Below are positions 2,699 through 28,372 of a DNA stretch of 58,034 nt, one piece after another (position 1 is the stretch's first letter; the number at the start of each line of letters is the position of its first letter). Made by a program: the position numbers and the translations under genes. The notes beneath the pieces are model-generated. The model did not search any database. It was not told the origin of the DNA and saw nothing but the letters and a program-made list of their open reading frames with translations. Source of the stretch: Catajapyx aquilonaris (lineage: Eukaryota); NCBI GenBank assembly GCA_000934665.2, contig JYFJ02002385.1, positions 1 to 58,034 of the forward strand. The letters run 5' to 3'.

Positions 2699-4731
2699 AT
2701 GACTATCGCTAAATCGTTACTGCTCCTCGTTGTCTTCACCGCCCTTTTCCAGGTAATAATTATTATTGTAATCATTTTTTGCTTTGACTTCGATTCTCAT
2801 GCGCACAAATTCGATCATCAATTTCTTTGCAGATTTACCGAGGTATGTAATGTAGGAGGCATGTCAAAGATGCATACGGCTGGTTAACCTCACCTTTTCT
2901 GTTATTTCTTTGATTTATGTAAGGCGAAGATGAATACGAAGAGTGTCCCGGTATGTCCAAGAGATGCGTCAATTCCTTCTACCATCCAATCGTGCGGGTA
3001 AGTAGACAAAATACATGTCGCCCATACCCAGCCCGCAAATGCGAGTTACAAACATTTGAAAGTTACATTGTAACTGTAATGTCTTAGGAGGGCTCCTTCA
3101 GCAATGGGCTCGGTTCAGCGTGTAGGGATATCCTGTAGTGGCGCATGCGTATTCTTGATGGTAGATCTCGATGTGTAAGAGGGAGTGAGTACCTTGTGAA
3201 ACTGGAGGAGTAACTCACACAGTTGTGTCTATCCTTGCTGTTGGTACCTCGTAAGATTATGAATGAAACTGTTTATAAACCTTGCATGCTTTTGACTTGT
3301 GCAGGGCTGCGGAATTGTGACAAAACCATCCGCGGCTGCACTCAAGACATGTGCTGCAAATTTAGGAATTGAACTTCCTTGCTTCACTCTGGCTACCTGC
3401 GACTTGGGAAATGTCGTTCAGTGCTTGGAAAGCGAAGGAAACCTACAAACCGAAGTCAACTTTCAAGAGGAGAGCATTCAGAAGGTTGGCATCAATGTAT
3501 ATTTTTAAACGTCGTCTTTTCTGCAATAACTCTCAATAGAGTCATAGTCAAACAAATAATATAACTATGAATCATTCAATGATTTTCCACCATTTCTTTT
3601 TCGAAAAAAATATTGTGAATGAAATGAATGTGTTTTTTTATTTCAGGGTCTGGTGTACTGCTTGATGACGGAACAGCAATTGGTAGGATTTCAAACAAAC
3701 TTCTAATGTTAATTACTTCTTACCACTGTAATATGCATTCACATTGAAGCGGGAACCAAATATCAAATTATCAGTTTCTGAAAACTTCATACAAATTGTT
3801 GCATATTGTTGGATCAAAGTATTTAATATTTATGTTTCTATGTAATTACAAGATGGACCCCGATGGAAATTGCATCATTGACACCATATGCTCGCATTTG
3901 TCGGATCGTTTCTTGGGAGGAAATGCCGTTGAGGAAAGCAGCCGTAATGCGTTGCAACAATGTCTAGACACTCCTCCTGCAGATGATGGCAAGTATAGTC
4001 AGGTTCACACGGCTAAAACGACAGATTAATATTATTCTTCTCATTATAGGAAGAGATCCGAATTTCCAAAAAGCTGAACAAATTTTAATGTGCATGACAG
4101 GAGCCGTATACGATGTAAGTTCTGGTAACCTCTTCTATAAGAGGCACTTTGATGCAATTATGCTGTCACTTAGAGTAAATTTGAAAAATATGCAGTACGA
4201 TATTAGACCTACAAGCATATTTCCAAATGTATGTCTTAATCTCAGAGGATTACTGAATGTGTGGACCAAGCATGCCAACAACTCCTTGACACTCCTGGCC
4301 TCGAGGAGGAGGTCAGCAATCTACCCCCAGGACACACTTTTGACAACGGATTCACTCAACCTGAAGCCACTTCTGAGGGAACTCCTACTGAAGAAAGTTC
4401 TGATGCTACCGAAGAAAGTTCTGATGCTACTGAAGCTACTTCTGCTGATACTGAAGCTGCTTCTGCTGATACTGAAGCTGCTTCTGCCGATACTGAAGCT
4501 ACTTCTGCTGTTACTGAAGCAACGACACAGGCAGCAGAAACAGGAGGCGCATGTGGAGGCGATAAAATGTGGACAGATAAGCAAGGCAGAGTGAGAGAAG
4601 GCAAACAAGGCCAATGGTGTGGCCAAAGCGGCACCTGGGAACCTGCTGACGATGATTGGAAGAAAGGCTACAATGAATGGAAAAAAGAAAATCACCAGTC
4701 CAGCGACTCATCCTCCAGTGAAGGAGATTAG
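2699..4731 (+). CDS. Array gene 1: secreted Cys-rich (OBP-like) protein with Glu/Ala/Ser/Thr stalk and Trp-rich C-terminal module
   Basis: Exons 2699-2752, 2833-2842 (10 nt), 2924-2997, 3305-3484, 3647-3682, 3853-3988, 4050-4114, 4246-4731 join in one frame: MTIAKSLLLLVVFTALFQ-IYRG-EDEYEECPGMSKRC... All introns are GT-AG except 3989-4049 (GC-AG). The structure is the same in five paralogs. Confidence 0.88.
4390..4515 (+). repeat. Coding 21-bp tandem repeat, 6 units (EESSDAT/EAASADT)
   Basis: Visible periodicity gaagaaagttctgatgctact / gaagctgcttctgctgatact. Confidence 0.9.
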
Positions 4732-4950
4732 CATAACAATTTTGAGCACTACTCTACACAATAAAATGTTTGATCTAAGTTATCATGTGTAATTAAATGA
4801 CAAATTTTAGTTGTTCTACATTAATATCGCAGATGCTTTTAAATAACTAACACGAGTTTCATTTTTATGGAGTTTTTTTTTCTACACATCATCCAATCTG
4901 TGTTGGAACTTATGGATGATCTAGCTTCCAAATACTGTAAGTTATGTAAG

Positions 4951-5093
4951 TCTATATAAATAAAGCCGTCTGTGATCTGTCTGTCTGTCGTCTGTCTGTC
5001 TGTACCGCCTGCCAACCGTCATTTGCCTACCATCTGTGGTCCACCTCCAACACCTTCAACCTATCCCACTGGAAACGCCGACCGTCATTTGTC
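4951..5093 (+). mobile_element. Non-autonomous Helitron-like element fragment
   Basis: Starts TCTATATAAATAAAGCCGT, contains a (CTGT)n tract, and shares ccgcctgccaaccgtcatttgcct with the copy at 28772. The 3' end is not resolved. Confidence 0.55.
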
Positions 5094-5598
5094 AAAGAAG
5101 TACAAAATTCACAAGCAACAGAGTGCGACTATGTGCGACTTTGTTATTTTATGACTCCAGGAAGCATCCAACAGTATACCTTGGAATCATCATATGACGT
5201 TTGCAATATTATGATAACTTTTTTCTAAACTATACAATTCGCCATATGATTGATCTGTGCACTCCGAGTGTGGGAAAAATGTCAACAAAAAAATCATTCA
5301 TTATACAATGACCATCATGAGCTTATTTCAAGGTCAGCCGGAATCAGGCACTTTCGAAATCAGGTGTAAGCTAGGATGTAATCAGATAATTACAAGTAGG
5401 ATCCAATGATTACATATAATTATAATAATTTTTCATATTCTGAAAAATTATTACATCTAGTCATAAGTAATAAGTAGAGGTGAACACAGGACAGGGGATT
5501 TCGTGCAAGCAAGGTTCCGGTTTCTGTACGGAAGTCAGCTAAGGAGGCGGAGATGTGGACTGAAACAAAGAGGACGAGAAAAATGAACTAGACAAAAC

Positions 5599-5606
5599 TG
5601 ACGTCA
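5599..5606. promoter_or_regulatory. CRE palindrome TGACGTCA, also at 9244-9251, 12321-12328 and 15104-15111
   Basis: Perfect 8-mer retained at the homologous position upstream of genes 2-5 while the flanks diverge. An ETS-type (C/A)CGGAAGT lies about 70 bp upstream (5528, 9173, 15030) and at the homologous site of gene 1 (2411). Confidence 0.5.
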
Positions 5607-5821
5607 CTTTTGAATTGCGAGAGCTCATTGTGGCACTGGAGGTGTTGTCTCACATCGAATTGTAAATTACATAAAACCTGAGTGAATACAATAGGACCGG
5701 AAAGTCTTCCGACATACACGCATCCCTGGAACATATACCGATGATACAGAATGGTCACGAACAGAGCTGATTTATAATATTGAACAAATAGAAACATACT
5801 TATTTTCGGTTGTGAGACAAC

Positions 5822-8520
5822 ATGACTCTCGCAAAATCGTTTCTGCTCCTCATTGTCTTCACGACCCTTTTTCAGGTAATAATGCTCTCTCGTATTCATA
5901 TATTTGTTGTGATTCTTGATTCACATCGACATAAATTGAGCACCATGTTCTTTTCAGAGTTACAGAGGTATGGAGAACAGAAGGCACATATTTCAGGACA
6001 AATACATGTTTCAAACATGGGATACTGACATGTACATTGCAGGGCATGCAGTAGATTTGTGATAATATTATTCTGACACCAACAGTAGGCGGTATAAAAT
6101 TGACATTTTCAATACTTGTGAGACAATCGGTTGAAACGAAAAAGTGAGCAATCTAGTTTTTATCGCCAAAAACAGTATTTAGGCAGATATTGTGTGCGTG
6201 ATTCCTTTGTCTTAATAGTTAATGAGATGTCATTAATTGTCGTCAGACGATATTTTGATATACCACGTATTATTATATTATAGCAGAACGAGAAGCCTAA
6301 AGAAATACTGTAGATTTTCTATACATTGTGACATAAGTGATGCAATCGCAGAGATTGTTGACATCACCGTTTGTTTTTATTTCCTTGATTTACGCAAGGG
6401 GATGAAGCTGCAGATGAATACGAAGAGTGTCCCGGTATGTCCAAGAGATGCGTCAATTCCTTCTACCATCCAATCGTGCGAGTAAGTTAGCCAGCATACT
6501 ACAAACCTCCAGTAAGTTTATAACAACTCTTGTGACCTGCGCAGGGCTGCGGAATTGTGACAACACAAGCTGCGGCTGCCGTCAAGACATGTGCTGCAAA
6601 TTTAGGAATTCCAATTCCTTGCTTCACTCTGGCTACCTGCGATTTGGGAAATGTGGTTGAATGTTTAGGCAGTGACGAAAACAGACAAGCCGAAGTCAAC
6701 TTTCAACAGGAGAGCATTCAGAAGGTTTGGGTCCAGCATGTTACATTGCTCTTTTTCTTTGTGATATGTAATACCAGGTAATACTCAAGGGATTGAAGCA
6801 AACAATGTGGTCTAATTATGAAGCCTTCAACTCCATTCTATCATTTTTTTCAGAAACAATGTTACGAATAAAATGAACGTGTTCTTCATTTTAGGGTCTC
6901 ATGAACTGCGTGATGACGGAACTGAATTTGGTAAGATTTCTTATTACCACTTTATAATGTTACTACCTCTTACCAATTTATTGTAACTGGTATTTAGACT
7001 TTGTTAAGTCAAAGTGCTTATTTTAAATAAAATTGAACCCGGAAAATTCGAGTTATGATCATATAACTTGAACAAACCTTGCCTAATTCAAAAGTGGCTC
7101 GCAGTGTAAAAATAACTTAAGAAAATATCATTATTAATGTAGTGATATATATTATTTTATGTTCTTGGTGGTTTCAAGATGGAACCAGATGGAAGTTGCA
7201 ACATTGATACCATATGCTCACATGTGGTGGATCGTTTCATGGGAGGAAATGCCCTTGAGGACAGCAGCCGCAATGAGTTGCAACAATGCCTGGATAGTCC
7301 TCTGCCAGAAGATGATGGCAAGCACTATCGTTATGATGGCCAAGAATCACTATTTAATACTTTCTATCTCATTCAATGTAGGAAGAGAACAACTATTCCA
7401 AAGAGCGGAACAAATTTTAACATGCATGACAGACGCCATAATTGACGTGAGTTCTGGCACCCTCTGCGATAACAGGCACTTATAGATGCAAACATGGCCA
7501 CCTACACGTACTATACCTATATCATTTGCAATAGCTTTTTTAAATGTGTGGTTTATTATATCCTTAAAGGGACACTCCACTCAAATAACAAGTTTGGCTC
7601 CTAAAATCGGGCAGAAAATCCTGAATCCGGAGGTGCAATCCGTTTTTCGCTACGCGGAACGGTAATCCCAGGGGTCAAAGTGGGGAAATTCAAATAGTGC
7701 GCTAGAAGACTCTGGCCGTCCGTCAGCGACGCCCTCGAGACCTTGGGAACTGGAGGGCTGCCCCCGCTTGCCCGCGCGCTTAGGACCATCCCAGAGCGGT
7801 GCAGCCCTCCAGTTCCCCTGTTCCCCGCGTGGCGGCGCAGCTCATTAGCAGACGACTCACTTTGACACCTCGCCCTGGGATTACCGTTCCGCGTAGCGAA
7901 AAACGAATTGCACCGTTGGATTCATGGTTTTTTGCCCGATTTTCAGAGCCAAACTAGTTTTTTGAATGGAGTGTCCCTTTAAGTAATTTCCCTAATGGAT
8001 ATCTTATATATCTCAGAGGGTTACTGCATGTGTGGACCAAGCGTGCGAACATCTCCTTGGCACTCCTGGCCTCGAGGACGAGGTCAGCAATCTACCCCCA
8101 GGACACACTTTTGACAACGGATTCACTCAACCAGAAGCCACTTCTGAGGCAACTCCTACTGAGCCAAGCCCTGAGCCAAGCCCTGAGCCAAGCCAGGAGC
8201 CAAGCCCTGAGCCAAGCCCTGAGACAAGCCCTGAGCCAAGCCCTGAGCCAAGCCTTGAGCCAAGCCCTGAGACAAGCCCTGAGACAAGCCCTGAGACAAG
8301 CACTGAAACGACCACTGAGACAACCACTGAGACAACCACTGAAGCGCCTAAAAAATGTGAAAGTAAACGTACGTGGAAGGATAGCAAAGGCAGATTACGT
8401 AATGAGGAAGGCAAAGTGTGTGACGAAACCACTGGCGAATGGCAAGAATCTGATTCTGATGACGAGGACTGGAAAGAATGGGCCAAGAAATATAAGGGAA
8501 TGAATAACAAATATGATTAG
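5822..8520 (+). CDS. Array gene 2: paralog with EPSP/ETSP/ETTT stalk
   Basis: Exons 5822-5875, 5958-5967, 6399-6481, 6545-6724, 6895-6930, 7179-7317, 7382-7446, 8017-8520; open frame; GC donor at 7318; MITE in the last intron. Confidence 0.88.
7568..7978. mobile_element. MITE with long TIRs and TTAA target duplication (Kolobok/T2-type)
   Basis: TTAA (7564-7567) | AGGGACACTCCA ... TGGAGTGTCCCT | TTAA (7979-7982). Imperfect TIRs exceed 100 bp. GC-rich core. Absent from the homologous intron of the other paralogs. The purine-purine start fits Kolobok rather than piggyBac (CCY). Confidence 0.85.
8161..8340 (+). repeat. Coding 12-bp tandem repeat, 15 units grading EPSP to ETSP to ETTT
   Basis: gagccaagccct, then gagacaagccct, then gagacaaccact. 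Confidence 0.92.
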
Positions 8521-8903
8521 GGGAGGAATTGAACGTCCAGTCATTTCAGTGAAGTCGATTAGCATAATATTTATGACCACTAGACTACTCTTTACGGCTC
8601 ATTGACATTATCAGGTGTACATAATAAACCACTTCATTGTGGCCCTATACATATATGCCACTATAGCATCTGGATATTCCCTGAGAAAGTACATTCTTTT
8701 CAGCATTAATAATCTGTTACGATTAATATTGGCTATGAAAGTTTGTCTTAGGTCTCTACTGCCATGACCTGTTCCCATCGGAAAATGGAAAGTAAAATAA
8801 ATTCTGCGCAAGGCAGATTATTATTATCAACCCACTTGTTCAATGTTTTTCTACGCTATTCACATGAGATATTACTGTCACATGTATTATCTCTGTTATA
8901 TTA

Positions 8904-9049
8904 CAGTGTTGGACATTAATCGAGGCATAGTGCTAGCGACATTTTCCGAAGCGGCAGAAGAAGGAATCTTGCCCGGCTTGCTTCGATTCCTTCTTCTGCC
9001 GCCTCGGAAAATGTCGCTAGAACTATGCCTCGATTAATGTCCAACACTG
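8904..9049. mobile_element. 146-bp fold-back MITE with CAGTG...CACTG ends (Tc1/mariner-like)
   Basis: About 65-bp near-perfect inverted arms around a 16-nt spacer. TA is present on the left flank only. Confidence 0.7.
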
Positions 9050-9548
9050 AACTCCTCGTATTACCCCGCAATTAAGCACCTGATGTCCCTGTCACTGTTA
9101 TGAAATAAATACCAAGTATGTCGGAGAGTTTCAAACCATCGTCCTTCGTGCAACCAATGTTGTAGTTTCTGTCCGGAAGTCAGATAAAGAGGCGGAGAAG
9201 TGGACTGCAACAGAGAGGAAGAGGGAAATGCACTGCACAGAACTGACGTCAATTTGTCATAGGAAAATTGACACTGTAAAGAGGTTTGATCCTGCCAACC
9301 ACAGAATTCGAGGAAATAGTCACTGAGCTTTATGCACATTTGAATGGGGATATCAATTTGCGTCACTGCGGTACTGTCTGATATCAAAGTGCAATTACAA
9401 CATGACCGTCAAATGAGTACATCAAGGTTGGAAAGTCTTACTGCACAAGCTTTTATGGAAGTTACAGGTGCAGGATGGTACGAGAGTTGACACATGATTT
9501 CGAACAAATACGACCTGGTTGGAGTCAGATTCTAGGTTGTGATGCAGC

Positions 9549-11800
9549 ATGATCCTCACGAGATTACTGCTCCTCATTGTCTTCACGACCTTTTTCCAGG
9601 TACTATATTCTCTTAGTCTCCATTTTTGTTTCAACTTAGATTCCCATATACAAAAATAATTCTATCGCCATTTTCTTTGCAGCTTTGCCCAGGTACAGTA
9701 CGTGTAGGAGTCACATGTATCTTTCCCAGAAAAAGGGTTAGTGTATAGTTTGTTGACCTCACTTTTTGCTATTACTTCCTTGATTTATGTAAGGGTACGA
9801 CCCAAGCGAAGATGAATACGAAGAGTGTCCCGGAATGTCCAAGAGATGCGTCAATTCCTTTTTTCATCCAATCATGAGGGTAAGTATAGTCTGCAGCATT
9901 TTCGTTCGGAGTGCGGAAGCCCATGATGAACATTACCACACCCTGATTTTGTAATGTCCAAATTACGTCGCCTTCGATGTACGTACCTGCAGGGCTGCGG
10001 AATTGTCACAGAGGAAAGCGTAGCTGCACTCACGAAATGCGCTGCTAAATTGAGCATCCAACTTCCTTGCTTCACTGGTGCTACCTGCGACTTGGGAAAT
10101 GTCGTTCAGTGCTTCGGAAATGAAGAAAACAAAAAAGCCGAAGTCAACTTTCAACAGGAGTGCTTTCAGAAAGTAACAAATGAGTATTTTCTTAAGTTGA
10201 TTTCTTTGCAATAATTAAATCATTCGCTGATAAGTATGTAATCCCCTAAGTATTCAAAGAAACGATGTGGTCTGCTATATGAATATTTCAACGCCTTTCA
10301 GACACAATATTGTGAATGAAATGAAATCTTCATTTCAGGGCTTGGTGTACTGCCTGATGACGGCAATGAATTTGGTAGGATTCTTTAATTAAGGCATTAT
10401 TATATGGATTTATATATTTTTGTGTTTGTGCTAAATTGCAAGATGGATATTGCTGGTGGTTGCAAATTGGACATCATATGCTCTCATGTGGAGCAACGGT
10501 TCTTGGGAGGAAATGCCCTTGAGGACAGCAGCCGCAATGAGTTGCAACAATGTCTGGACAGTCCTCTGGGAGAAGATGATGGTAGGTATTCTGGTTCAGT
10601 TGTCCAAATATCACAATTTAACACTTTGCATCTCATTGCAGGAAGAATTAAAATATTCCAAAAAGCGGAACAAATTTTTATATGCATGACAGATGTCATA
10701 ATCGACGTAAGTTCTGGTAATCTCTAAGATATGACATGCACTTTGATGCAAATAATGAGGGCCTAACCATCTGTAGTCCTATGTAGTTTATTAAACCCCT
10801 AAATAATTTTCCTAATGTAACGTTATGTCTTATATCTCAGAGAAGTACTGCATGTGTGGACCAAGCGTGCGAACAACTGCTTGGCACTCCTGGCCTGGAG
10901 GAGAAAGTCAGCAATCTACCCCCAGGATACACATTTGACAACGGATTCACTCAACCAGGAGCCACTTCTGAAGAAAGTACTGCTGCTACAGAAGTCAGTA
11001 CTCCCAGTACTCAGCCTACAGAAGAACCAAGCAGTGAACTTACAGTGTCAAGCACTGAATCAACCACTGAATCAACCACTGAATCAACCACTGAATCAAC
11101 CACTGAATCAACCACTGAATCAACCACTGAATCAACCACCGAATCAACCCCTGAATCAACCCCTGAATCAACCCCTGAATCAACTACAGAATCAACCACC
11201 GAATCAACCACCGAATCAACCACCGAATCAACCACGGAACCAACTACTGCATCAACCACCGAATCAACCACCGAATCAACTACCGAATCAACCACTGAAT
11301 CAACCACGGAACCAACTACTGAATCAACCACCGAATCAACTACCGAATCAACCACGGAACCAACCACGGAACCAACTACTGAATCAACCACCGAATCAAC
11401 TACCGAATCAACCACGGAATCAACTACTGAACCAACTACTGAGTCAACTACTGAATCAACCACCGAATCAACTACTGAATCAACCACCGAATCAACCACT
11501 ACCTCTGAAGCAACAACCACCTCTGAAGCAACAACCACCTCTGAAGCAACAACCACTACCTCTGAAGCAACAACAACAACAACAGCAAGCGCAAGCACAT
11601 GTAAACCCAAGAAAAAAATGTGGAAGGATGAACAAGGTAGAGATCGTGGTGCCAAAAAAGGCCAATGGTGTGACGAAAGCAGCGGCAAATGGAAACCTGC
11701 TGACGATGATTGGCAAGCAGGCTACGAAAAATGGAAAGAAGAGCATCCGGGTGAGAATCAAGGGACCAGCGATGAATCCGATTCTCCCGAAGAAGATTAG
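9549..11800 (+). CDS. Array gene 3: paralog with long (ESTT)n mucin stalk
   Basis: Exons 9549-9599, 9683-9692, 9794-9879, 9993-10172, 10339-10374, 10443-10581, 10642-10706, 10841-11800; all GT-AG; open frame. Confidence 0.9.
11057..11500 (+). repeat. Coding 12-bp tandem repeat, 37 units (ESTT and variants), followed by SEATTT units
   Basis: gaatcaaccact periodicity; 444 nt / 12. Confidence 0.93.
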
Positions 11801-12511
11801 CATAACATTTTGGAGCACTACTCTGTATGTAATGAATTTATCTAAAATATCATGTATAATTAAATAACCAATGCATATGTCGCTGCACCTTTTCAATATT
11901 TCAGAAAAAAACAACAGTTTTCAACGCTAACCCTTTACAAAATTAATGTGATTAGTAATGGCGTGGAAAATGCTGGGTATCTTACATGAGTCATCTTATT
12001 CGTGACAATGATAATGAGCAGGTTGCAAACTATTATGACGCAAGCCACGACACAATAATTATGTTCATCAAATGCTAAATGATGGAGTATCGCATATACA
12101 CACCAGTGATATACCACGAGGTCCAGAGTTCGATCCCCTGGTTGGACGAAGGATTTTCCCACGCTAAAAAAGCTATGATGAGTCATCTATCGTGTAATTG
12201 TAATGAAGTTAACACAGTACAGGGGAGTGGTCCTTCGTGCAACCAAGGTTCGGTTTCTACGCGGAATCCAGCTGATGCGGACTACAACACAGAGGACGAG
12301 GAAATTGAGATACACAGCACTGACGTCATATTATTTCACTCCAGGTACTGTCTCATGCCAAAGTGTAATGACACCAGCATGAAGGCTGAATGAAAACACC
12401 AAGGACGAAAAGTATTCATGGACCAATGCAGGATGGTCACGAGCAGAGTTGACACATGATTTCGAATAAATATAAACAGACTTTGAGTCTGATTTTAGAC
12501 TGTGGGACAAC

Positions 12512-14458
12512 ATGGCTCTCATGAGATCGTTACTGCTCCTCTTTGTCTTCACGGCCCTTTTCCAGGTAGTTATATACGCTCACCTTCATTTTTGTTTGAA
12601 CTTGGATTTTACGCACAAATAATTCAATCACCACTTTCTTTACAGATTTGCCCAGGTAGGGGATGTATGAGTTTGTTACTGTGTATAGTTAGTTGACCTC
12701 TTGCTGTTATTTTGCTTTATTTATGTAAGGGGATGAAATTGCTGAAGATGAATACGAAGAGTGTCCCGGTATGTCCAAGCGATGCGTCAATTCCTTCTAC
12801 CATCCAATCGTGCGGGTAAGTAGCCAATTTCGGCATTTCCATCCCACTCAGATTTTTGGAGGTCCAAATAAGGTCATTTTTTGTAGTCAATGTTAAGTCA
12901 CTAATTAGCAATGAAAATAATGTGCCACCTACAAACCTCCAGTGTAACAATGCTTGTGTCCTGTACAGGGGTGTGGAATTGTGACAAAACAAGCCGTAGC
13001 TGCCCTCAAGACATGTGCTACTAAATTAGCCATCCAGCTTCCTTGTTTCACTCTGGCTACTTGTGATTTGGGAAATGTCGTTGAATGTTTCGGCAGTGAA
13101 GAAAACAGACAAGCAGAAGTCAACTTTCAACAGGAGAGTATTCAGAAGGTTGGAGTACATTTCCTTGCTCGTTTTTTTGTGTAATAATGTAACCCATCAC
13201 AGGTTATGAAGCAAACAATACAAGAATCGACAAGAATACAATCATGAAGAGGAAGCATGTTTGCAAAAGTGACATTAGTGAAATGAATGTTGTCCTTTCA
13301 GGGCCTGGTGTACTGCATGATGACCGAAGTGAATTTGGTAATATTCCCTTACACTGTATTAAATGTCTTATTTTAAATTTAATTATACTACACTGTATTT
13401 ATGTTTTGGTGGTTGCAAGATGGATCCTGATGGAGGTTGCAGCTTGGACACCATATGCTCTCATTTGGAGCAACGGTTCTTGGGAGGAAATGTCCTTGAA
13501 GACAGCAGCCGCAATGAGTTGCAACAATGTCTGGACAGTCCTCTGGCAGAGGATGATGGCAAGTACTCTGGTTCACATGAACAAAAATCACAATTTAACA
13601 CTTTGCATCTCATTGCAGGAAGAGATCGAGTTTTCCAAAGAGCTGAACAAATTTTAATATGCATGACAGATGCCATAATTGATGTAAGTACTGGTAACCT
13701 CTTCTGTAACATGCACTGATGCAATAATGCAAACCTGACTTGCAGACTTGGCTTTTTAAAATGCGTAGCTTATTAAACATGTGAGTAACTGCCCTAATGT
13801 ATGTCTTATATCTCAGAGGAGTACTGAATGTGTGGACCAAGCGTGCGAACACCTCCTTGGCACTCCTGGCCTCGAGGAGGAGGTCAGCAATCTACCCCCA
13901 GGACACACATTTGACAACGGATTCACTCAACCAGAAGCCACTTCTGAAGCAACTCCTACTGAAGAAAGTGCTGCTCCTACTGAAGAAATCACAGAACCGA
14001 GCACTGAATCAACTATTGAACCAATCACAGAGTCAACCACTGAATCAACCACTGAATCAACCACAGAATCAACCACTGAATCAACCACTGAATCAACCAC
14101 AGAATCTACCACTGAACCAACCACTGAACCAACCACAGAGTCAACCACAGAGTCAACCACTGAACCAACCACAGAGTCAACCACTGAATCAACCACAGAG
14201 TCAACCACAGAGTCAACCACGGAATCAACTACCGAATCTACCACTGAATCAACGACAACGACAACAGAAAAAGCAGGCACATGTGAAGGCAAGAGAATAT
14301 GGGAGGATAAACAAGGTAGAAAGCGTGAAGGCCAAGATGGCCAGTGGTGTGACCAGAGCGGCAACTGGCAACCTGCTGACGATGATTGGAAGGAAGGCTA
14401 TAAGCAATGGAAAAAAGAAAATCACAAGGAATCCAGATCGTCCAGTGAAGAAGATTAG
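12512..14458 (+). CDS. Array gene 4: paralog with (ESTT)n stalk
   Basis: Exons 12512-12565, 12646-12655, 12730-12815, 12969-13148, 13302-13337, 13420-13558, 13619-13683, 13817-14458; GC donor at 13559; open frame. Confidence 0.88.
13982..14257 (+). repeat. Coding 12-bp tandem repeat, about 23 units (ESTT/EPTT)
   Basis: gaatcaaccact / gagtcaaccaca periodicity. Confidence 0.92.
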
Positions 14459-15426
14459 CAAAGCAGTTTTGAACACTACTTTATCATGATGACTAATTAC
14501 CTTGACAACCCTAATATTTTGTTGTTCATTTGATGCAAATATAGCCTAACATTTGTCTAGCAGTAAGTAGCATCATGGTGGATCTGTCTACCACATTTTC
14601 AAGTATGAAATTATAAACAAGTTCACCTTGTGTGACTTTCTCATTATTATTTTTAATGACACCTCATCACCCAGTAGGTATCATTACGTGACCATAAAAG
14701 GGCAGAGGACATGACTGAAATAGCTGATTGAATATGTGGCAAATATAACTTGTCACCACAACGGCGAACAAGAAAAGGCCGGAAAGTTCTCTCGTGGTAC
14801 ATGCAAGGGGTGAGTACACTAGCACACACATATGCATGACGGACGCAACTATTCGTATACAAGTTGTTAAGTATTTACTTTTAAGCGTGAGAAACGAACA
14901 TCTATTCTATCAAGACAAAACGACGCAATACTAACTGATTTTTTTACGAATTTTTCTCATGAACATGCCAGTTGTACAGAGGGAGTGGCTAACCATACTC
15001 CTTCATGCAGTCAAGGTGGGGGTTTCTGTCCGGAAGTCCGCTGAAGAGGAGGAAATGTGGACTAAAACAAAGGCCCGGACGAGGAAGATGAGCTACACAA
15101 AACTGACGTCAATTTGTAATAGGAAGATCGACAATGATGTCAACAGGATTTGATCTTGCAACACTCGGAATTTGAGTAATGCGTCATATTGACTGACATA
15201 CGTAGAAAAGATGCGTCAAATTGGAATTGCGAGATCACTTTGCGTCACTGGAGGTATAGTCTCATAACGAATTAAAATGACATGAATGTTGAATTAAAAC
15301 AACTAGGCCTACGACACACGCATATTTATAGAAAGTACCTATTCAAAATCGCGACGAATGGAATTGACACATGATTTCGAATAAATATAGACAGATTTGA
15401 AGTCTGATTTTAGGTTGTGAGAGAAG

Positions 15427-17300
15427 ATGACTCTGATGAGATCGTTGCTGCTCCTCATTGTCTGCACTGCCCTTTTCCAGGTAATCACAATCAGCATTTA
15501 TGTTTTGAACTTCGATTCCCATATGCCTTGCCATATGCTCAAATAATTCGATTACCACTTTCTTTGCAGATTTGCCCAGGTCAAGGCCCAGGTATGTAGT
15601 GTATAGAAGGCATAACATATTATCGCCGGGTGTGAATGTGAATACACACTTGCAAGAAAGTTTATTTGGGCTAATTATAGTACAAATTAAATTCTCATCG
15701 CCGCGCACCGTTTGATATAACTTATCAGGCATCATCAAGATTAGTGTATAATTTGTTTTTGCTGTTATTTCTTTGATTTATTGAAGGGTACGACCCAAAC
15801 GAAGATGAATACGAAGAGTGTCCCGGAATGTCCAAGAGATGCGTCGATTCCTTTTTCCATCCAATCATGAGGGTAAGTATCTCCAGCATTTTCGTTCGCC
15901 TACAGAAAATGCCTAATGACCAGTCCATAACTTACATTACTACAAGACTTTGATTTTGTAATGTCCAAATGTGAATCGTACAGGGCTGCGGACTTGTGAC
16001 ACAGGAAAGCGCTGCTGTAATCACGAAATGCGCTGCTAAATTGAGTATTCAACTTCCTTGCTTCACTGGCGCTACATGCGACTTGGGAAATGTTGTTCGG
16101 TGCTTCGGAAGTGAAGAAAACAGACAAGCTGAAGCCAGCTTTCAACAGGAGAGCTTTCAGAAGGTATGTGGACACTATGAAAATTTTACCGCCTTTCAGA
16201 CACAATATTGTGCATAAAATGAGTGTATTCTTCATTTCAGGGTCTGGTGTTCTGCATGATGATGGAAATGAATTTGGTAGGAATACCTAACAACTTTGTA
16301 GTGTACCTTACATTTAAACACTTAGTAATATATATTTTTGTGTTTATGCTATTGCAAGATGGATATTGCTGGTGGTTGCAAATTGGATACCATATGCTCG
16401 CATTTGGCGAACCGGTTCTTGGGAGGAAATGCCCTTGACGAAAGCAGCCGCAATGAGTTGCAACAATGTCTCGACAGTCCTCTGGCAGAGAATGATGGTG
16501 AGTATTCCTGTTCACATGGACAAGAAGATCACAATTTATTAAATCGTGATTTAATTTAACCCTGTGCATCTCATTGCAGGAAGAATGAAACTTTTCCAAA
16601 GAGCGGAACAAATTTTAATATGTATGACAGACGCCATAATCGATGTAAGTTTTGGTAACCTCTTCTCTAACCAGGCACTTTGTTGCAATATTATGCAAGC
16701 CTGACCAGTGACCATGTGTATGCCTCTCATTCACAGTAACTTCCCAAATGTGTAGTTTATAAAAGCCGCTAAGTAATTTTCCTATTGCGTCTTATATCCC
16801 AGAGGAGTACTGAATGTGTGGACCAAGCGTGCCAACACCTCCTTGGCACTTCTGGCCTGGAGGAGGAAGTCAGCAATCTACCTCCAGGACACACATTTGA
16901 CAACGGATTCACTCAACCAGAAGTCACTTCTAAAGCAATTCCTTCTGAAGAAAGTGCTGCTCCTACTGAAGCAAGTACTGAAGCAAGCACCGAAGCAAGC
17001 ACTGAGGCAAGCACTGAAGCAAGCACTGAGGCAAGCACTGAGGCAAGCACTGAAGCGAGCACTGAAGCAAGCACTGAAGCAAGCACTGAAGCAAGCACTG
17101 AGGCAAGCACTGAAGCAAGCACTGAAGCAACTACACCCACATGTGACGGCAATAAAATGTGGAAAGATGACCAAGGTAGAGTGCGCGAAGGCGAACAAGG
17201 CCAATGGTGCGACCAAAGCGGCAACTGGCAAGCTGCTGACGATAATTGGAGAAAAGGCTACAGGCAATATTGTAACGATAATCCAAGTGCATGCCAGTGA
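15427..17300 (+). CDS. Array gene 5: paralog with (EAST)13 stalk and remodelled C-terminus
   Basis: Exons 15427-15480, 15570-15591 (or 15570-15579), 15787-15872, 15984-16163, 16241-16276, 16359-16497, 16580-16644, 16803-17300; GT-AG; open frame. Confidence 0.88.
16968..17123 (+). repeat. Coding 12-bp tandem repeat, 13 units (EAST)
   Basis: gaagcaagcact periodicity. Confidence 0.93.
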
Positions 17301-17388
17301 ATCCAGCTCGTCCAGTGAAGAAGATTAGCATAACAATATTATTTTGAGCACTACATTACAATCATAATGACTAGTTAGCATGTTGACT

Positions 17389-17506
17389 TAAATTACGTAT
17401 TTCAATGCTTTTATGCATATTCTGCTGCTTCACCTTTTCAATATTCTGGAATATTGAAAAGGTGAAGCAGCATAATATGCATAACAGCATTGAAATAGGT
17501 AATTTA
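17389..17506. repeat. 118-bp near-perfect palindrome just downstream of gene 5
   Basis: 58-bp arms with 3 mismatches, centre 17447-17448. Confidence 0.92.
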
Positions 17507-19219
17507 TTATTAATTAGGTACTAATGTGATTAGTAGGCTAATATATTATGTACATAGTGGGTATCTTCCGTGTGGAGTGTGAATATCAGGCATCTTAATC
17601 GTGACGGTAATATTTCGCAGGTTGTAAAGTTTTGCCACAATAAAATTGATGACTCCTCCATAATTCCATGGGGGATTCGACAGTACTTCGCAATAGTCTT
17701 ACAGTTGTAACCTAATAAAAGTTAATTTTTACAATACAGTTGGTAATTTGATTGGCCTGTGTATACATCTCTCATTTCTTCATAGCACGTTGGAACTATT
17801 AAATAATAAGAATAAATAATATAACTTGTGGATCATTTGATGATCCGGTATGGTCTGATGGTCTGAATGATTCAGGACTTTCTACAGAAGTCGTACTAAT
17901 GACTTCAGACAACATCTCGATAAATACATCTGCCGTGAAATACCTGCATGCATGCATGCACACACTGATTGTGAGCTTTGAAAATCATGGCCCGAATAAC
18001 ATTAGGTGGGGGTGGATTTTTAGCAGATCACGCAATTACTTGATCATAAAGAGGCAGAGGATATGACGGCAAGAGCTGATTGAATATGTTACAATTATAA
18101 ACAAACTGAGATCCTAAAAACGGAAGTGAGTCAACTAGCCGGAACTGGACAGCTGACAGAAACATATTCGCACGTTATCAATTGGACTGGTTCGTAGTTG
18201 ATAACATATGCGAATAATTTTTGCGACACATCGAAATAAATTACTATGTAAACTTACAGAAATGAACCTTATAATTTGTTCTCAACTTTTATTTTGTATT
18301 AGAAGTGTATTAATATGCGCAAACAGCCACAATGACTACCTATTATTATTATTACTGTGATTAGAGTGACATATTCAACAAAGGTAGAATTATTGAGAAA
18401 CAGCAATGCCAAGTAGTGAATATGACTCTGATTGTCTCGATGATCTGCATCAGTCGATAACAATGCCATGTACAGGGAAGTGCTATGTAGTGTTAAAATG
18501 TGATCGGTTACTCGAAGTCACGCGGATCAGTGGCAATACAATAGTTACGTTAAGATTAGTGATTTATAATATACCAACCTATTACGAAATTTCCACTCGT
18601 GTACATTGTGATTTAGTTTCATTCCACAATATTCTTCTCCAAAAATTTGGAAAAAAAATAAGCAACTCAAACGTACCTGCAAGGCTGCAACAGTGAAACC
18701 GCTACTGATAATGAGCTCACCGATTTCTCCCAGAAACATTCAGCGCCAGGTAGACTAATATAGCCCAAGAGAACGACATCTTTCTACTAGGGATAGATCC
18801 ATTTCAGTGCCTACGCCTCAGCAATGAAACAATACACCCTGTATAATACTATTGACAAGCACAGCCACAGTACCTTCTGCATCCGTTGTCAATCAGAAGA
18901 ACGCAACTAAAAAATTATCAGGAATTACCCTCTAATGCATATAGAAAGGTTGCGTAACTCGCTTTGGATGTCATGTCATTTCAAATATATTGTTTTCATT
19001 AACCACGACCATACCAACTGTCAGATGTCGTGAAAGAAACAGAGGCCCCATCAGGAAAGGGGGTATATAGAGAAGTCCCAAAATGACAAAGCCTTCGTGC
19101 TTCCTATGAGTGACAAGGCCACCATGCATAATATTCGGGATAATGAATAGGAGCGACTTACGTGCACATTATAAATCAGGTTGATGTCGATTGCAGCCTG
19201 GTTTATTCCAATGGTCATC

Positions 19220-21268
19220 ATGAATCCGGTGAAGAAATTGCTCTTCTCGATGCTCTTCTCAGCCTCGTTTCAGGTATAGGCTAGCACTTCTTGTAATTCT
19301 TTTTTCCCCACAGTTCAGTATTTTCTTTTATTTTCAGCTTTACCACGGTGCGTATGTGACACTTCAGTAATATATTATTACGTGGTGTATCATATCAGGC
19401 CTATGCACTGTACTAAAACATTGCCCGAAGTCTGTTACTCGTTACGTACATAAGTAATGCTTGCAATTTCTGCATTAAAGATTTCAGTAATTTTTTGTGA
19501 CATTGTCAATCTCACCTCTGATGTAATGTCTTTTACTCTGTACCTATACATTTTTGGCCATAAAGGAAGCGAAGACGAATATGATGGCTGCCCCGGTATG
19601 CAGAAAAAGTGCGTGGATTTATTTTATCATCAAGTATGTCGGGTAAGTGAGCTACAATTTTCCTCTTATATACAATAAATATTATTAGCTGATAATATTA
19701 AGTTGCGTGGACCTGCTTATAATAATCAGCTAAGTACCAATTGGAACATCCTGTGCATTAAATTTAAGAAATGTGGACTGGTGACCTCAGAGGCTGCTCT
19801 TGCAGTCAAGTCATGCGCTGCGCAATTGGACATTACTCTGCCATGTTTCATTGAAGCTACATGTAGCTTGGGGAATGTCGTCGAATGTTTAAACCAAGAA
19901 GATGATTATCAAGCAGCAGAAGAATTCGAAAGACTTGGCAAAGAAAAGGTACAGTAATCAGATGATACCAAGTTGGTACAACAGGTTCTCTGATCGAGCC
20001 TATTGTCGCGATGGCCTTATCCTTATGCTAAATTTTATTTTCAGGGTCTGATACTGTGCATTCTGATGGAGATGAATCTGGTAAAATGTCATCGCATTTA
20101 TTATTTTTTTGCTATTAGTATTTTTCTGGTATTTTCCATTGTCGATGCATTTGGTTACCCAGTGGTTACCCGTAGGTGGATTCCGAGGGAAACTGCTTGC
20201 TTGAAGAAGTGTATCCGCACTTGGCAAGCCGTTACTTTAAAGGCGCAGCACTAGATGAAAACGGGCAATCAGAGTTGGAATCATGCTTGAGCATCCCTCC
20301 TGAGGATGATGGAGAGTATTGCACATTAGAATGCAAAGAAAATATATGAATAATGACAGTCTTCTATAATTACAGGAACAAGAGACATCGCTTACGTACG
20401 GGCGGAGCATGCGTTCATGTGCATGTCAGATGCAGTAATTGATGTAAGAGTGACAATAAGTCACAACTTTCATATTCTTATCTGGTCCTCTACATACCCC
20501 AGGAAGCTACGAAATGCGTAGATGAAAGCTGCGACTGTTTCCTTTCCATCCCTGGAGTAGACCAGATTAGTGACGGACTCCCTGAAGGATTTGGTTCATC
20601 CAGTGAGTGCATGGACGGAGTGCCTCCAGGTAAGAATAAGTAACATTTCCATATTCATATAACACTTGCGCTAATAATTATTATAACCCTGTCTCTGTAC
20701 AGGAATCGGCGTGACTATACCAGATGTTGATATAACTGTTCCCGATATTGATGTAACTGTTCCAAGTGTGGATGTTCCAGACATTGAAGTTCCAAATGTT
20801 GATCTTCCTAGCGTTGAGGTTCCAAACGTCGATCTTCCTAGCGCTGAGGTTCCAAACGTCGATCTTCCTAGCGTTGAGGTTCCAAATGTTGATATTCCTA
20901 GCGTTGAGGTGCCAAATGTGGATGTTCCTAGCGTTGAGGTGCCAAATGTGGATGTTCCTAGCGTTGAGGTTCCAAATGTGGATGTTCCTAGCGTTGAGGT
21001 TCCAAATGTGGATGTACCTAGCGTTGAGGTTCCAAATGTGGATGTACCTAGCGTTGAGGTTCCAAATGTGGATGTTCCTAGCGTTGAGGTTCCAAATGTT
21101 GACGTTCCAAGCGCTGATGTTCCTAGCGCTGACGTTCCTAGCGCTGACGTTCCTAGCGTTGACGTTCCAAGCGCTGACGTTCCTAGCGTTGACGTTCCAA
21201 GCGCTGACGTTCCCAGTGTTGACGTTCCAAGCGCTGATGTTCCAAGCGTGTCAAAACCTCTTGGATAA
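19220..21268 (+). CDS. Array gene 6: divergent paralog with (VPSVD/VPNVE-type) pentapeptide tail and no Trp module
   Basis: Exons 19220-19273 (in-frame ATG also at 19211), 19338-19347, 19566-19642, 19769-19948, 20045-20080, 20176-20311, 20376-20443, 20503-20629, 20703-21268. The 54-, 10-, 180- and 36-nt exons and most Cys positions match the array. The sixth intron needs a GA donor or an alternative weak site pair. TATAAA at 19170-19175. Confidence 0.78.
20759..21250 (+). repeat. Coding 15-bp tandem repeat with a 30-bp higher-order period, about 33 units ([VLI]P[SN][VA][DE])
   Basis: gttccaaatgtggat alternating with gttcctagcgttgag. Confidence 0.92.
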
Positions 21269-24463: not shown

Positions 24464-24970
24464 ATTTCATTGTAATATTGTCATCGTAATACAGTTCAAA
24501 AGTTACTGTGTTTACAATTCACTTGGTGTAATATCCCCTTTATACCTATCCGTGCGTGCGGTGTCTCCAAAGCTCATATTTCATGATAATATATTCCGCT
24601 CAGGTGTGGGATTAATCATGGCGGTCTCACAGGTATTCATTAATTGAAGTTACAGTACGGCTAGTGAGAATGAATGGCTGGTAACAATTTGTCAATGATT
24701 ATAATATTTCTCGTTAATTAATTCAACATGAATCTACTGCAGTCTCCGCATGTGAAATATTTACACCTATACGACATTCTGGGTCCTTATTTATTATTAC
24801 TATCCACTGTCAAAAAAACATCGCAGCTGAGTTGAAATTAGCTCACATATCAATATAAAAATTATTTACGCGGGAATTAAGTTTAGAAGATTTATGTGTG
24901 AATTGAACATGAACCGACCCAATTCCTTTTCTACTGGTCTTTATTGACCCAAGCTTCCCATCTTATGCAC

Positions 24971-25051
24971 GTTGATGTTCCTAGCGTTGAGGTTCCAAAT
25001 GGTGACGTTCCAAGCGCTGATGTTCCAAGCGTGTCAAAACCTCTTGGATAA
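24971..25051 (+). pseudogene. Orphan 3' fragment of array gene 6 (VDVPSVEVPNGDVPSADVPSVSKPLG*)
   Basis: Near-identical to the end of gene 6 including the stop and downstream sequence; no upstream exons. Confidence 0.88.
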
Positions 25052-26223
25052 ATTATTCTTTCAACCAAAATCCATTCAGCAAATAATCTCCTTATGTTTG
25101 TGCTCGTAACTACATTATGATATTAATCAATTAGCCGGCATTTTCCTTGTAAAATTCGCTACTTATTTCAATGAGTAGCACGCGTAGACATTTTCATTCG
25201 AAGTACCGGCTGTCACATACACGAATACAGAATAAAAGTATGAAACTAACAAGCATTTATTTACTGAGCATACAGACAAGCTGCATAAGTACTGTATAGT
25301 AGCCAATGCTTATACGGCAATACTTTTCTCTGTAATGACTGAAAACCCGCATAAAAATAGAACAAAGATTTTTGCATCAATATTTAATTGAAATTAACTC
25401 TATTATTATATTTCCACCTAGAATCTATGAATATGAACAATAACGGTTATGAAATGATACGCAGTGTAATCATATGTGATAACAGCGGATTCAGATAATA
25501 ACGGACATTTTGATAAACCTTTACCATTAGTGAAAGTCATATGCTATAACTTATGCTATAAACTCTAGCTGGAATTTTTGAGCACAAATTTCAGTTTATT
25601 TCCCATTCTTGTGGGAAAGGAATGAAGAGACAACCTTTCCATAATATACCTCCTAGAATTCATATTGAACTAAATTCAGATGTAAGGCTCATCACCTAGG
25701 CTACTCTATCTCATAGACACTTCTTCCATTCTGTTTCGATATTATAGCTGCACCTTATCTATATTGCGGATTCAATATCAGGTAATGACACTGAGATTTG
25801 AAGAAGGTTATATTCATATTTAATTTCTGAAAACGTATATTGGAATACATACACACATGCTTTACCGACACATCCCTGTCTTACTTGCCTGTATAAATCC
25901 AGATTCAACCTTTTCCCTCACAATCCATATATTGTATTGAAATTAGCCCTTAAGGTTATCCTTTCAATAATAAGAAATCTCCATAGGAGAAATCAACACG
26001 AAGCTCATATCATCACATGATGGTACAGGAAAACCTACAGCCCACAACTTCTGAAGTGGTTGTTCCCCACTTGAAAGTAGTCTACATGGATTCCCAACAG
26101 TCGCTATCTTTTTAAAAAAATACCCTGGCGTCATCTCTCCCCTAGATTTGTCAAGATTGGCTGTTTTCAGGTCATATATAACGCCCGCTAAACTGATCGC
26201 ACTGCACATCCACACATAGCACC

Positions 26224-27566: not shown

Positions 27567-28372
27567 ATTTCATTGTAATACAGTTCACAAGTTAAACAAA
27601 CTTGCAATCTACGTACTTGTAATATCCCCTTTATACCCATCCGTGCGGTGTCTCCAAAACTCATATTTCATGCTAATATATTCCGCTCAGGTGTGGGATT
27701 AATCATGGCGGTCTCACAGGTATTCACTAATTGAAGTTACAGTACGGCTAGTGAGAATGAATGGCTGGTAACAATTTGTCAATGAAATAATAATTCTCGC
27801 TAATTAATTCAACATGAATCTACTGCAGTCTCAGCATGTGAAATATTTACACCTACGACATTCTGGGGTCCTTATTTATTATTACTATCCACTGTCAAAA
27901 AAACTTCGCAGCTGAGTTAAAATTAGCCCACATATTAATATAAAAATTATTTAGGCGGGAATTAAGTGTAGAATATTTATGTGTGAATTGAACGTGAACC
28001 GACCCAGTTCCTTTTCTACTGGTCTTTATTGACCCAAGCTTCCCATCTCAGCGTGGAGCATTCTATGAATTATCTTGCAGATGTGACACAGCGTGAATCC
28101 GATCGATTTTGACAATATCAAGGGCGTATACATAACCATCTTCCACTGTTGCCTTTTCATTACAATTATTGAAAGTTCATTACTCAATTGCTGCCTGTTG
28201 ATCAAATGGAGATGGCAAATGGGGTTAGTAACACACTGATGAGTTATTGGAAATTATGTACATTTTCTGATGATTTTATTGGGGAGAATAATACTGGGTG
28301 CTATGTGTTTGGGTGCCATCACAACGAACGAAACATAACTGTCTTCTATGCTGCCAGTTATGACGTTGTTGT

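Follow-up and report, generated by a model that had tools for sequence, protein, structure and literature searches.

Within the window (the whole stretch of 58,034 nucleotides that was analysed), positions 2699-21268 are occupied by six gene models on the plus strand, built from coordinates alone:

2699..4731, plus strand: gene 1, 8 exons, 346 aa (2699-2752, 2833-2842, 2924-2997, 3305-3484, 3647-3682, 3853-3988 with GC donor, 4050-4114, 4246-4731)
5822..8520, plus strand: gene 2, 8 exons, 356 aa (5822-5875, 5958-5967, 6399-6481, 6545-6724, 6895-6930, 7179-7317 with GC donor, 7382-7446, 8017-8520)
9549..11800, plus strand: gene 3, 8 exons, 508 aa (9549-9599, 9683-9692, 9794-9879, 9993-10172, 10339-10374, 10443-10581, 10642-10706, 10841-11800)
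12512..14458, plus strand: gene 4, 8 exons, 403 aa (12512-12565, 12646-12655, 12730-12815, 12969-13148, 13302-13337, 13420-13558 with GC donor, 13619-13683, 13817-14458)
15427..17300, plus strand: gene 5, 8 exons, 355 aa, 20 Cys (15427-15480, 15570-15579, 15787-15872, 15984-16163, 16241-16276, 16359-16497, 16580-16644, 16803-17300)
19211..21268, plus strand: gene 6, 9 exons, 420 or 419 aa (19211-19273, 19338-19347, 19566-19642, 19769-19948, 20045-20080, 20176-20311 with GA donor or 20176-20315 with GT donor, 20376-20443 or 20383-20443, 20503-20629, 20703-21268)

The genes share one exon skeleton: i) an exon 1 of 51-63 nt with a hydrophobic translation; ii) a micro-exon 2 of 10 nt in all six; iii) an exon 3 of 74-86 nt; iv) exons 4 and 5 of exactly 180 nt and 36 nt in all six; v) exons 6 and 7 of 136-139 nt and 65-68 nt; and vi) a long last exon, with one extra intron in gene 6 relative to genes 1-5. 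The original prediction of six same-strand paralogs with a common skeleton, open in genes 1-5, is thereby borne out, and all six spliced frames are in fact free of internal stops. The 43 introns all end in an AG acceptor; 39 of them are GT-AG, three are GC-AG (intron 6 of genes 1, 2 and 4) and one is GA-AG (intron 6 of gene 6). For gene 6 it had been claimed that the frame is open given one unusual splice site: the frame is open and the GA donor was found, but this donor is not required, because a canonical alternative (a GT donor at 20316, with an AG acceptor 7 nt further down) is open as well. The 10-nt micro-exon and the GC/GA donors illustrate annotation pitfalls, and they may be the reason why a gene prediction for the family is absent from the searched databases.

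Between genes 1-5 the exons are 76-92% identical and almost gapless, whereas the introns are 49-74% identical with many gaps, so the likeness of the genes goes beyond chance. It is highly improbable that the array is silent or decaying and not expressed as modelled: the GA donor at the homologous position in gene 6 would suit such a reading, as would gene 4, in which no AATAAA or ATTAAA hexamer was found within 400 nt past the stop (the other five genes have one), but six frames intact over 43 introns, exons conserved well above introns, the canonical alternative splice in gene 6 and head dN/dS values well below 1 (see below) all argue against it. A single polyprotein in place of six genes was rejected, as start, hydrophobic N-terminus and stop recur in every unit. 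The long minus-strand ORFs over the repeats (e.g. 20671-21339 and 11011-11721) mirror the low-complexity repeat frames. Ten intergenic or antisense ORFs within the array gave no Pfam match above cutoff, and the window had no match in Rfam. A foldback element lies inside intron 7 of gene 2 (570 nt). On the sequence evidence, the array is a lineage-restricted paralog family of six real tandem protein-coding genes.

Each of the proteins is composed of a Cys-rich head and a stretch of tandem repeats, followed in genes 1-5 by a Trp-rich C-terminal module. The repeats and modules are located as follows:

4386..4520, plus strand: gene 1 spacer repeats, 21-nt unit, 6.4 copies
8159..8343, plus strand: gene 2 spacer repeats, 12-nt units, PEPS/PETS type
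11048..11574, plus strand: gene 3 spacer repeats, 12-nt unit x 37.8 (TEST type), then an 18-nt unit
14002..14253, plus strand: gene 4 spacer repeats, 12-nt unit x 21, TEST type
16940..17130, plus strand: gene 5 spacer repeats, 12-nt unit x 13.8, TEAS type
20720..21245, plus strand: gene 6 repeats, 30-nt unit x 16.2, Val/Pro/Asp/Glu-rich
4549..4728, plus strand: gene 1 Trp module with acidic Ser-rich tail, from alignment and fold
8353..8517, plus strand: gene 2 Trp module, the most divergent, 47% identical to that of gene 4
11597..11797, plus strand: gene 3 Trp module with acidic tail, from alignment
14279..14455, plus strand: gene 4 Trp module, the sequence folded (three short strands and a helix at 37-53, mean pLDDT 79.9)
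17139..17297, plus strand: gene 5 Trp module, whose tail has two additional Cys

All six N-termini score as hydrophobic (mean Kyte-Doolittle over residues 5-18 of 1.62-1.91 in genes 1-5 and 0.74 in gene 6), and the proteins are apparently secreted. They contain 16, 16, 18, 17, 20 and 16 Cys (genes 1-6), and 13 Cys columns that are invariant in all six, together with one that is common to five, make up a 14-Cys head skeleton; this even count (13 + 1) fits the expectation for an oxidised extracellular domain. The signal peptide and 14-16-Cys core that had been proposed are thus recovered as a hydrophobic N-terminus and 14 conserved head Cys. The head (pI 4.1-4.5) is the best conserved part, with 73-83% identity among genes 1-5, and gene 6 is the divergent member (42-46% identical to the others). 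The dN/dS comparison across paralogs, proposed earlier as a check, yielded 0.23-0.52 for the head in 14 of 15 pairs (one pair was saturated) and 0.22-0.64 for exons 3-8 when pooled per exon, and indicates that the head is under purifying selection. Folding of exon 4 alone gave a pLDDT of 56.2, too poor for use as a search query. The exon 3 peptides weakly matched two small disulfide-rich families in Pfam, Inhibitor_I67 (bromelain inhibitor VI; 15.1-18.4 bits in 4 of 4 scanned, cutoff 25) and ShK (13.9-15.4 bits in 3 of 4 scanned, cutoff 20.9), with scores below the cutoffs and with only 2 Cys (3 in gene 6) in place of the full Cys pattern of either family.

The head could be the active part, i.e. 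a soluble ligand-binding, inhibitory or defence protein that the spacer and the Trp module only localise or present, the expansion then being a diversification against varied targets. Its being the best conserved part and the sole part kept in gene 6, the below-cutoff resemblance of exon 3 to inhibitor- and toxin-like models and the three cathepsin B genes directly downstream would agree with this, but the weak Pfam matches span only the two-Cys stretch, the head dN/dS gives no sign of the positive selection that is typical of arms-race effectors, and proximity to cathepsin B is no evidence of a functional link; we therefore consider this reading improbable.

The acidic repeat stalk of the original prediction holds, with tandem arrays in all six genes and a pI of 4.1 for the spacers of genes 1-5, which consist of 35-65% Ser+Thr, 21-25% Asp+Glu and 0-3% Lys+Arg. 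The repeat unit is different in every gene and the longest spacer is that of gene 3, which makes the family a compact example of how repeat spacers change fast while the flanking domains stay fixed. Pro is low in the repeats of genes 1 and 3-5. Gene 6 carries a tail of VPNVDVPSVE-type repeats and has no Trp module. Measured against a loose definition of mucin-like proteins, tandem repeats are present with the above Ser+Thr content in genes 1-5, and O-glycosylation is putative. Glu is as prominent in the spacer as Thr/Ser, so its sequence can equally well be read as one for phosphorylation or cation binding.

The secretory kinase acts on S-x-E, and caseins and their relatives bind calcium through Ser-Glu clusters; secretory calcium-binding phosphoproteins are secreted, acidic and carry clustered S-x-E phosphorylation sites that bind calcium. 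The family might consist of acidic matrix phosphoproteins that bind calcium or mineral in cuticle, shell or eggshell, with phosphorylated spacers and tails and the Trp module as a chitin anchor. Such a role would be in line with the acidity of every domain (the C-terminal part has a pI of 4.7-5.1), the absence of N-glycosylation sequons, the S-x-E/D motifs, which number 1-20 per spacer (gene 2 has 12, gene 5 has 14), and the Ser/Asp/Glu-rich tails at the ends of genes 1, 3 and 4. It has little probability in our view, as Thr dominates the repeats of genes 3 and 4, which have just 3 and 1 S-x-E/D motifs, respectively, and neither Pfam nor the exon 4 profile search revealed likeness to a known mineralisation protein.

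The small Trp-rich domain that had been noticed in genes 1-5 is clearly present: the module comprises 52-66 aa and holds all Trp residues of the proteins (5, 4, 5, 5, 4 and 0 in genes 1-6). Twelve positions, including 2 Cys and 3 Trp, are invariant across the five modules. Structure prediction per domain, another of the checks suggested beforehand, gave the module a confident fold, with the mean pLDDT listed above obtained from only five sequences. For reference, the WW domain has a sheet of three strands and two Trp spaced by about 22 residues.

We then searched for relatives. In Pfam, none of 33 exon or ORF peptides scored above threshold. An HMM profile made from the six exon 4 peptides was run against 1.84 billion representative proteins, where a 60-position profile needs about 37 bits for an E of 1e-3; the four matches at E ≤ 1e-3 (best 40.2 bits) were spurious, being multi-stretch alignments to TPR-repeat or highly repetitive proteins. 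Word-based searches yielded 12 candidates for exon 4 among proteins of 106-2000 aa (none at E ≤ 0.01) and two for the gene 3 Trp module among proteins of 175-559 aa (none scoring). Sequence searches of the PDB were not significant (exon 4 reached an E of 2.3 at best, and the Trp module one of 0.045, to a BIR domain), fold searches of the PDB gave no relative, and the ESM Atlas returned no usable match for the Trp module and only unnamed clusters for exon 4, at 0.91 and with low recognition. Scanning metagenomes with the exon 4 alignment produced 51 pattern matches, of which one passed tblastn (L001, 45% over 29 residues); it was dismissed as a chance match, lying in a 363-aa ORF on a contig with all frames long and open, as in high-G+C bacterial DNA. 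Likeness to the Cys repeats of copepod luciferase was dropped as well, for lack of such a match in the exon 4 profile search. Peptide motifs of the family had no match in full-text literature, and a keyword search gave nothing relevant by title or abstract among the matches listed.

The family is accordingly without detectable relatives in the sequence collections searched, and the claim that its architecture is not a recognised one stands for Pfam, profile, PDB, ESM Atlas and text searches, with the head covered as exon pieces. Since the head was searched only exon by exon (pieces of 21-60 aa), this result is weaker than it sounds. There is a small chance that a known family escaped detection in this way, given that every head search and fold used exon-sized pieces, for which the bit score demanded of a 60-position profile is high, and that the source lineage is poorly sampled: the best database matches of the conserved neighbour NOC2L are at most 48% identical, which points to databases without close relatives of the source organism. 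Set against this is the failure of the Pfam, profile, word-based, PDB sequence and ESM Atlas searches alike to reach any threshold.

Small aromatic-rich, disulfide-stapled modules joined by glycosylated spacers are the usual means of tethering proteins to polysaccharide or mineral surfaces. Secreted repeat proteins that are confined to one lineage abound in animal genomes. The reading that we prefer, with a probability that we put somewhat short of even, is that these acidic three-part extracellular proteins are structural parts of a mucin-like or glue-like secretion or coat; secretion, modification, binding, tissue and role are what we infer from the sequences. The head of some 180-200 aa would be locked by seven disulfides between its 14 conserved Cys. 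The spacer would be extended and unstructured, built of short Thr/Ser/Glu(/Pro/Ala) repeats, with a different unit and length in each paralog, and, being O-glycosylated and/or phosphorylated, it would keep the head off whatever the Trp module attaches to, which may be chitin or some other polysaccharide, or a different component of the matrix. In genes 1-5 the proteins would end in this disulfide-stapled module of about 50 aa (three short strands and a helix, 4-5 Trp) and an acidic Ser-rich tail, and gene 6, with its Val/Pro/Asp repeat and no Trp module, could be a differently anchored or free variant. A bolder version, rather unlikely but conceivable, sees in the head a seven-disulfide fold without precedent and in the Trp module a small binding domain of a new type (e.g. 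for carbohydrate or matrix). The array would then supply the chief proteins of some specialised secretion, be it an adhesive, a coat of egg or cuticle, or a gut or mineral matrix, and the invertebrate lineage concerned would be one that is missing from current protein databases.

Several known systems resemble the array family in part. According to the passages on them in PMC6352337, the Drosophila glue genes encode a signal peptide, include Cys-rich members, have fast-evolving Thr/Ser-rich repeats that are predicted to be disordered and vary in motif and number even between neighbouring paralogs, are tightly linked, and have a conserved C-terminus that is short (in Sgs3, about 50 aa), and they are hard to find outside their lineage. 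The array family is like these salivary glue proteins (Sgs1/3/4/5, Eig71Ee; the Sgs3-7-8 cluster at 68C), as those passages portray them, in its N-terminus, Thr/Ser repeats with a unit that changes from paralog to paralog, short conserved C-terminus and linked Cys-rich paralogs. It differs from Sgs in that conservation lies in a large head (about 200 aa, 14 Cys), the repeats are rich in Glu and for the most part poor in Pro instead of Pro/Thr/Lys-rich, and the genes have 8-9 exons including the micro-exon; no Sgs sequence was among the matches of the Trp-module word search or the exon 4 profile search. By analogy with the glue genes as described there, the general kind (signal peptide, Cys-rich ends, fast-evolving Thr-rich repeats, tandem cluster) is well known. 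The novelty that had been claimed is upheld only in so far as no described family matched, but not for the general layout (PMC6352337, same passages), and the label of a system was overstated, as these are six paralogs of one gene and not cooperating parts: the array stands as an orphan family of interest, not as a new system.

Insect intestinal mucins and peritrophins combine chitin-binding CBM14 domains, which have a six-Cys pattern, with mucin domains. The array proteins likewise have small disulfide-bonded aromatic-rich domains and Thr/Ser-rich spacers, but their Trp module has 2 Cys versus the 6-Cys peritrophin-A pattern, and CBM_14 gave no Pfam match at E ≤ 1 in the 33 exon or ORF peptides. 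Gel-forming mucins (VWD-C8-TIL, PTS repeats, cystine knot) are similar in having Cys-rich ends around a repeat domain and predicted secretion; the array proteins are, in contrast, small (346-508 aa), and VWD, C8, TIL or cystine knot was not found in Pfam at E ≤ 1, with the head as exon pieces. Fungal cellulases consist of a catalytic core, an O-glycosylated Ser/Thr linker and a small CBM1, and their globular head, extended linker and small disulfide-stapled aromatic-rich module make them the analogy that best shows how such a layout could function; the likeness is in layout only, as the array head has no enzyme signature, Pfam gave no CBM1 match and the source is an animal. If expressed as modelled, the family adds two domains without recognisable relatives, the 14-Cys head and the Trp-rich module of about 50 aa, and a new surface-tethering module would interest the bioadhesive, matrix and biomineralisation fields.

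Directly downstream of the array lie three cathepsin B genes, and in the same region a remnant of gene 6 was found:

24968..25186, plus strand: gene 6 relic with the last repeats, the stop codon and the 3' flank of gene 6

Apart from this relic, tblastn with two spliced models detected no further gene copy elsewhere in the window. A suspected seventh gene at 24970-25032 was rejected, being only a duplicated fragment of the gene 6 tail, which tblastn matched at 24968-25048. The relic was brought along when the downstream cathepsin B gene was duplicated.

Stop-to-stop translation of the window (animal DNA, G+C ~40%) showed that one set of short open segments recurs six times on the + strand (2699-21268). 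The exon ends were set by reading the sequence and from the flanks of conserved landmarks, and the six models were then rebuilt from the coordinates alone. None of the spliced models contained an internal stop (genes 1 to 6: 346, 356, 508, 403, 355 and 420 aa), and since each unit has its own start and its own stop there are six genes; a single polyprotein was ruled out on the same ground. The array observed in the original prediction was thus confirmed and refined: genes 1-5 are open as stated there, and the proposed skeleton with a 10-nt micro-exon and exons of 180 and 36 nt reappeared in the coordinate-built models.

Exon skeleton shared by all six genes
Exon 1: 51-63 nt, hydrophobic N-terminus
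Exon 2 (micro-exon): 10 nt
Exon 3: 74-86 nt
Exon 4: 180 nt
Exon 5: 36 nt
Exon 6: 136-139 nt
Exon 7: 65-68 nt
Last exon: long

The micro-exon is required for the reading frame, because the length of exon 3 is 2 mod 3 in all six genes and becomes a multiple of three when the 10 nt are added. Gene 6 carries one extra intron, upstream of its repeat tail. The introns are short (59-570 nt), all 43 acceptors are AG, and the donors comprise 39 GT, three GC and one GA. The GC donors (GCAAGT/GCAAGC), which were absent from the earlier account that named the gene 6 site only, all belong to intron 6, at homologous positions in genes 1, 2 and 4; for this intron genes 3 and 5 have a GT donor and gene 6 has GA. 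Gene 6 had been considered open given one unusual splice site; the GA donor is present and gives an open frame, but it is not needed, since a GT donor 4 bases downstream (20316), joined to an AG acceptor 7 bases past the first, is equally open and yields a protein one residue shorter.

The predicted three-part layout (Cys-rich core, acidic repeats, and a Trp domain in genes 1-5) was borne out in the spliced models. Residues 5-18 are hydrophobic (mean Kyte-Doolittle 1.62-1.91 in genes 1-5, 0.74 in gene 6), which fits a putative signal peptide. The Cys-rich head (~200 aa, pI 4.1-4.5) has 13 Cys columns without variation across the six genes; a 14th is present in five, and gene 6 lacks it and gained other Cys. 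As the conserved count is even, the head would fit seven disulfides. Past a conserved Cys-free stretch begins the spacer, which consists of short tandem repeats that are different in every gene:

Gene 1: 7-residue Ala/Asp/Thr/Glu/Ser unit
Gene 2: PEPS/PETS
Gene 3: TEST
Gene 4: TEST
Gene 5: TEAS
Gene 6: 10-residue Val/Pro/Asn/Asp/Ser/Glu unit

In genes 1-5 the spacers contain 35-65% Ser+Thr, 21-25% Asp+Glu and 0-3% Lys+Arg (pI 4.1). The Trp module that closes these genes (52-66 aa, 4-5 Trp, 2 conserved Cys, 12 invariant positions in the five-sequence alignment) is followed by a Ser/Asp/Glu-rich tail in genes 1, 3 and 4. From the same alignment AlphaFold2 predicted three short strands and a helix (37-53), with a mean pLDDT of 79.9 and 81-91 across residues 1-50. 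One main rival reading, that the proteins are acidic mineral- or calcium-binding phosphoproteins, would draw on the many S-x-E/D motifs in spacers and tails and on the pI of 4-5 of every part. No N-glycosylation sequon (N-x-S/T) occurs in any of the six spliced proteins, which is unusual for secreted proteins of 346-508 aa.

Exon identity among genes 1-5 is 76-92%, nearly without gaps; intron identity is 49-74%, the gap columns numbering from hundreds to thousands, and that of the 300 nt of upstream DNA is 64%. The comparison of dN/dS across paralogs, suggested as a check in the original prediction, gave Nei-Gojobori values for the head of 0.26-0.52 within genes 1-5; in comparisons with gene 6 they were 0.23-0.30, and one pair was saturated. 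Pooled per exon, dN/dS was 0.22-0.64 for exons 3-8, 0.70 for exon 1 (signal region) and 1.12 for the micro-exon, the last from 40 codon pairs only; the Trp module was looser (0.20-0.95). These values and the intact frames argue against another main rival, a silent array. The most similar stretch in genes 1-5 is formed by codons 1-45 of the last exon (e.g. 13817-13951; 92% DNA identity), which are Cys-free and lie between head and spacer. Because dS is lowest there (0.158 vs 0.29-0.51 elsewhere), gene conversion may contribute, or else constraint at the nucleotide level. Five genes have AATAAA or ATTAAA at most 400 nt past the stop, and neither was found within that distance in gene 4. Similarity among genes 1-5 continues for at least 180 nt ahead of the start codon and includes several conserved blocks (2499-2698 for gene 1 and the corresponding 200 nt of genes 2-5); a TATA-like hexamer at -41 occurs in genes 4 and 6 only.

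The profile and structure searches used contiguous translations, so that the head, spread over six exons, was covered as exon pieces only. With this coverage no relative was detected, in agreement with the original prediction that the architecture is not a described family. In Pfam, no family exceeded its own cutoff for 33 exon or ORF peptides; the best real-looking rows were exon 3 (two Cys) against Inhibitor_I67 (15.1-18.4 bits, cutoff 25) and ShK (13.9-15.4 bits, cutoff 20.9). Extensin for the gene 6 repeats (49 bits, cutoff 105) was a low-complexity match. A profile search with the six exon 4 peptides against 1.84 billion representatives returned four matches at E≤1e-3, all repeat proteins aligned in 5-9 stretches and therefore rejected, and the sole match of a metagenome scan, in a bacterial-looking contig, was judged to be chance. 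For exon 4 and the Trp module, neither word-based searches nor PDB sequence searches found a relative, and the ESM Atlas gave no usable match; exon 4 alone folded poorly (pLDDT 56). A text search for 12 of the family's peptide motifs found no match in published texts. The neighbourhood contains:

~22627-24463: cathepsin B-like gene, copy 1, directly downstream of the array
~26220-27566: cathepsin B-like gene, copy 2 of the recently duplicated pair
35047-36681: a third cathepsin B-like gene, more divergent than the pair (last exon: Peptidase_C1, E 6e-33)
48603-49961, - strand: KDM8-like JmjC/cupin protein, 452 aa, unusually long single-exon ORF
53385-54947, - strand: F-box/LRR protein, 520 aa, unusually long single-exon ORF
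56300-57973, + strand: NOC2L, 557 aa, unusually long single-exon ORF

None of these suggests a functional link to the array. The best database matches of the conserved NOC2L are from branchiopod crustaceans, at no more than 48% identity, followed closely by thrips, amphioxus, lobster and Lingula; the source lineage is therefore thinly represented, and the matches point to a bilaterian that leans only weakly towards crustaceans. With such sampling, an orphan-like appearance is what one would expect of a secreted family that evolves fast. A further main rival is that a known family was missed because the searches used exon pieces.

The order of head, spacer and end module is the layout of tethered extracellular proteins. 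Cellulase-type proteins, with a core, a glycosylated linker and a small binding module, are a functional analogy, as are the insect peritrophin-mucins. The nearest described kind appears to be the Drosophila glue genes, alike in layout and clustering: their proteins have a signal peptide and a short conserved C-terminal part, their disordered Thr-rich repeats vary even from one paralog to its neighbour, some members are Cys-rich, and the genes are tightly clustered (PMC6352337). The array is one paralog family, and its general kind is familiar; the architecture put forward earlier is real and was assigned to no family, but it is not the new system proposed. On the strength of this layout we tentatively take the family, at somewhat under an even chance, to supply structural parts of a secretion or coat, in which the Trp module would be the end that attaches. 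The head would be locked by disulfides, the long charged Thr/Ser-rich spacer would tolerate rapid repeat turnover, and the small end module, rich in aromatic residues, would be disulfide-stapled; that the proteins are secreted, how they are modified, what they bind and in which tissue are all inferred. The main rival concerning the head makes it the active part, ligand-binding or inhibitory.

A tandem duplication of ~3.7 kb within 21151-28048 contains the cathepsin B-like gene (copies 89-91% identical in DNA); along with it, the final repeats of gene 6, its stop and its 3' flank were brought to 24968-25186. Gene 6 therefore already adjoined cathepsin B when the protease gene duplicated. Apart from this tail relic (24968-25048), tblastn with two spliced models found no further copies in the window. 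A MITE-like foldback element of ~430 nt (7561-7990; 73% match to its own reverse complement) lies in intron 7 of gene 2, and a related element of ~500 nt (inverted arms 23315-23481 and 23685-23822) in an intron of cathepsin B copy 1; copy 2 lacks this related element, which was therefore mobile after the duplication. Two paired Pro-rich ORFs on the + strand (46494-47961; 312 and 164 aa) matched no Pfam family; the pair shows PHSPVGR-type repeats (tandem array 46609-46700), and its C-terminal end is rich in Cys. At 44900-45035, where ORFs overlap on both strands, a G+C-rich 28-nt unit is repeated in tandem for 4.7 copies.
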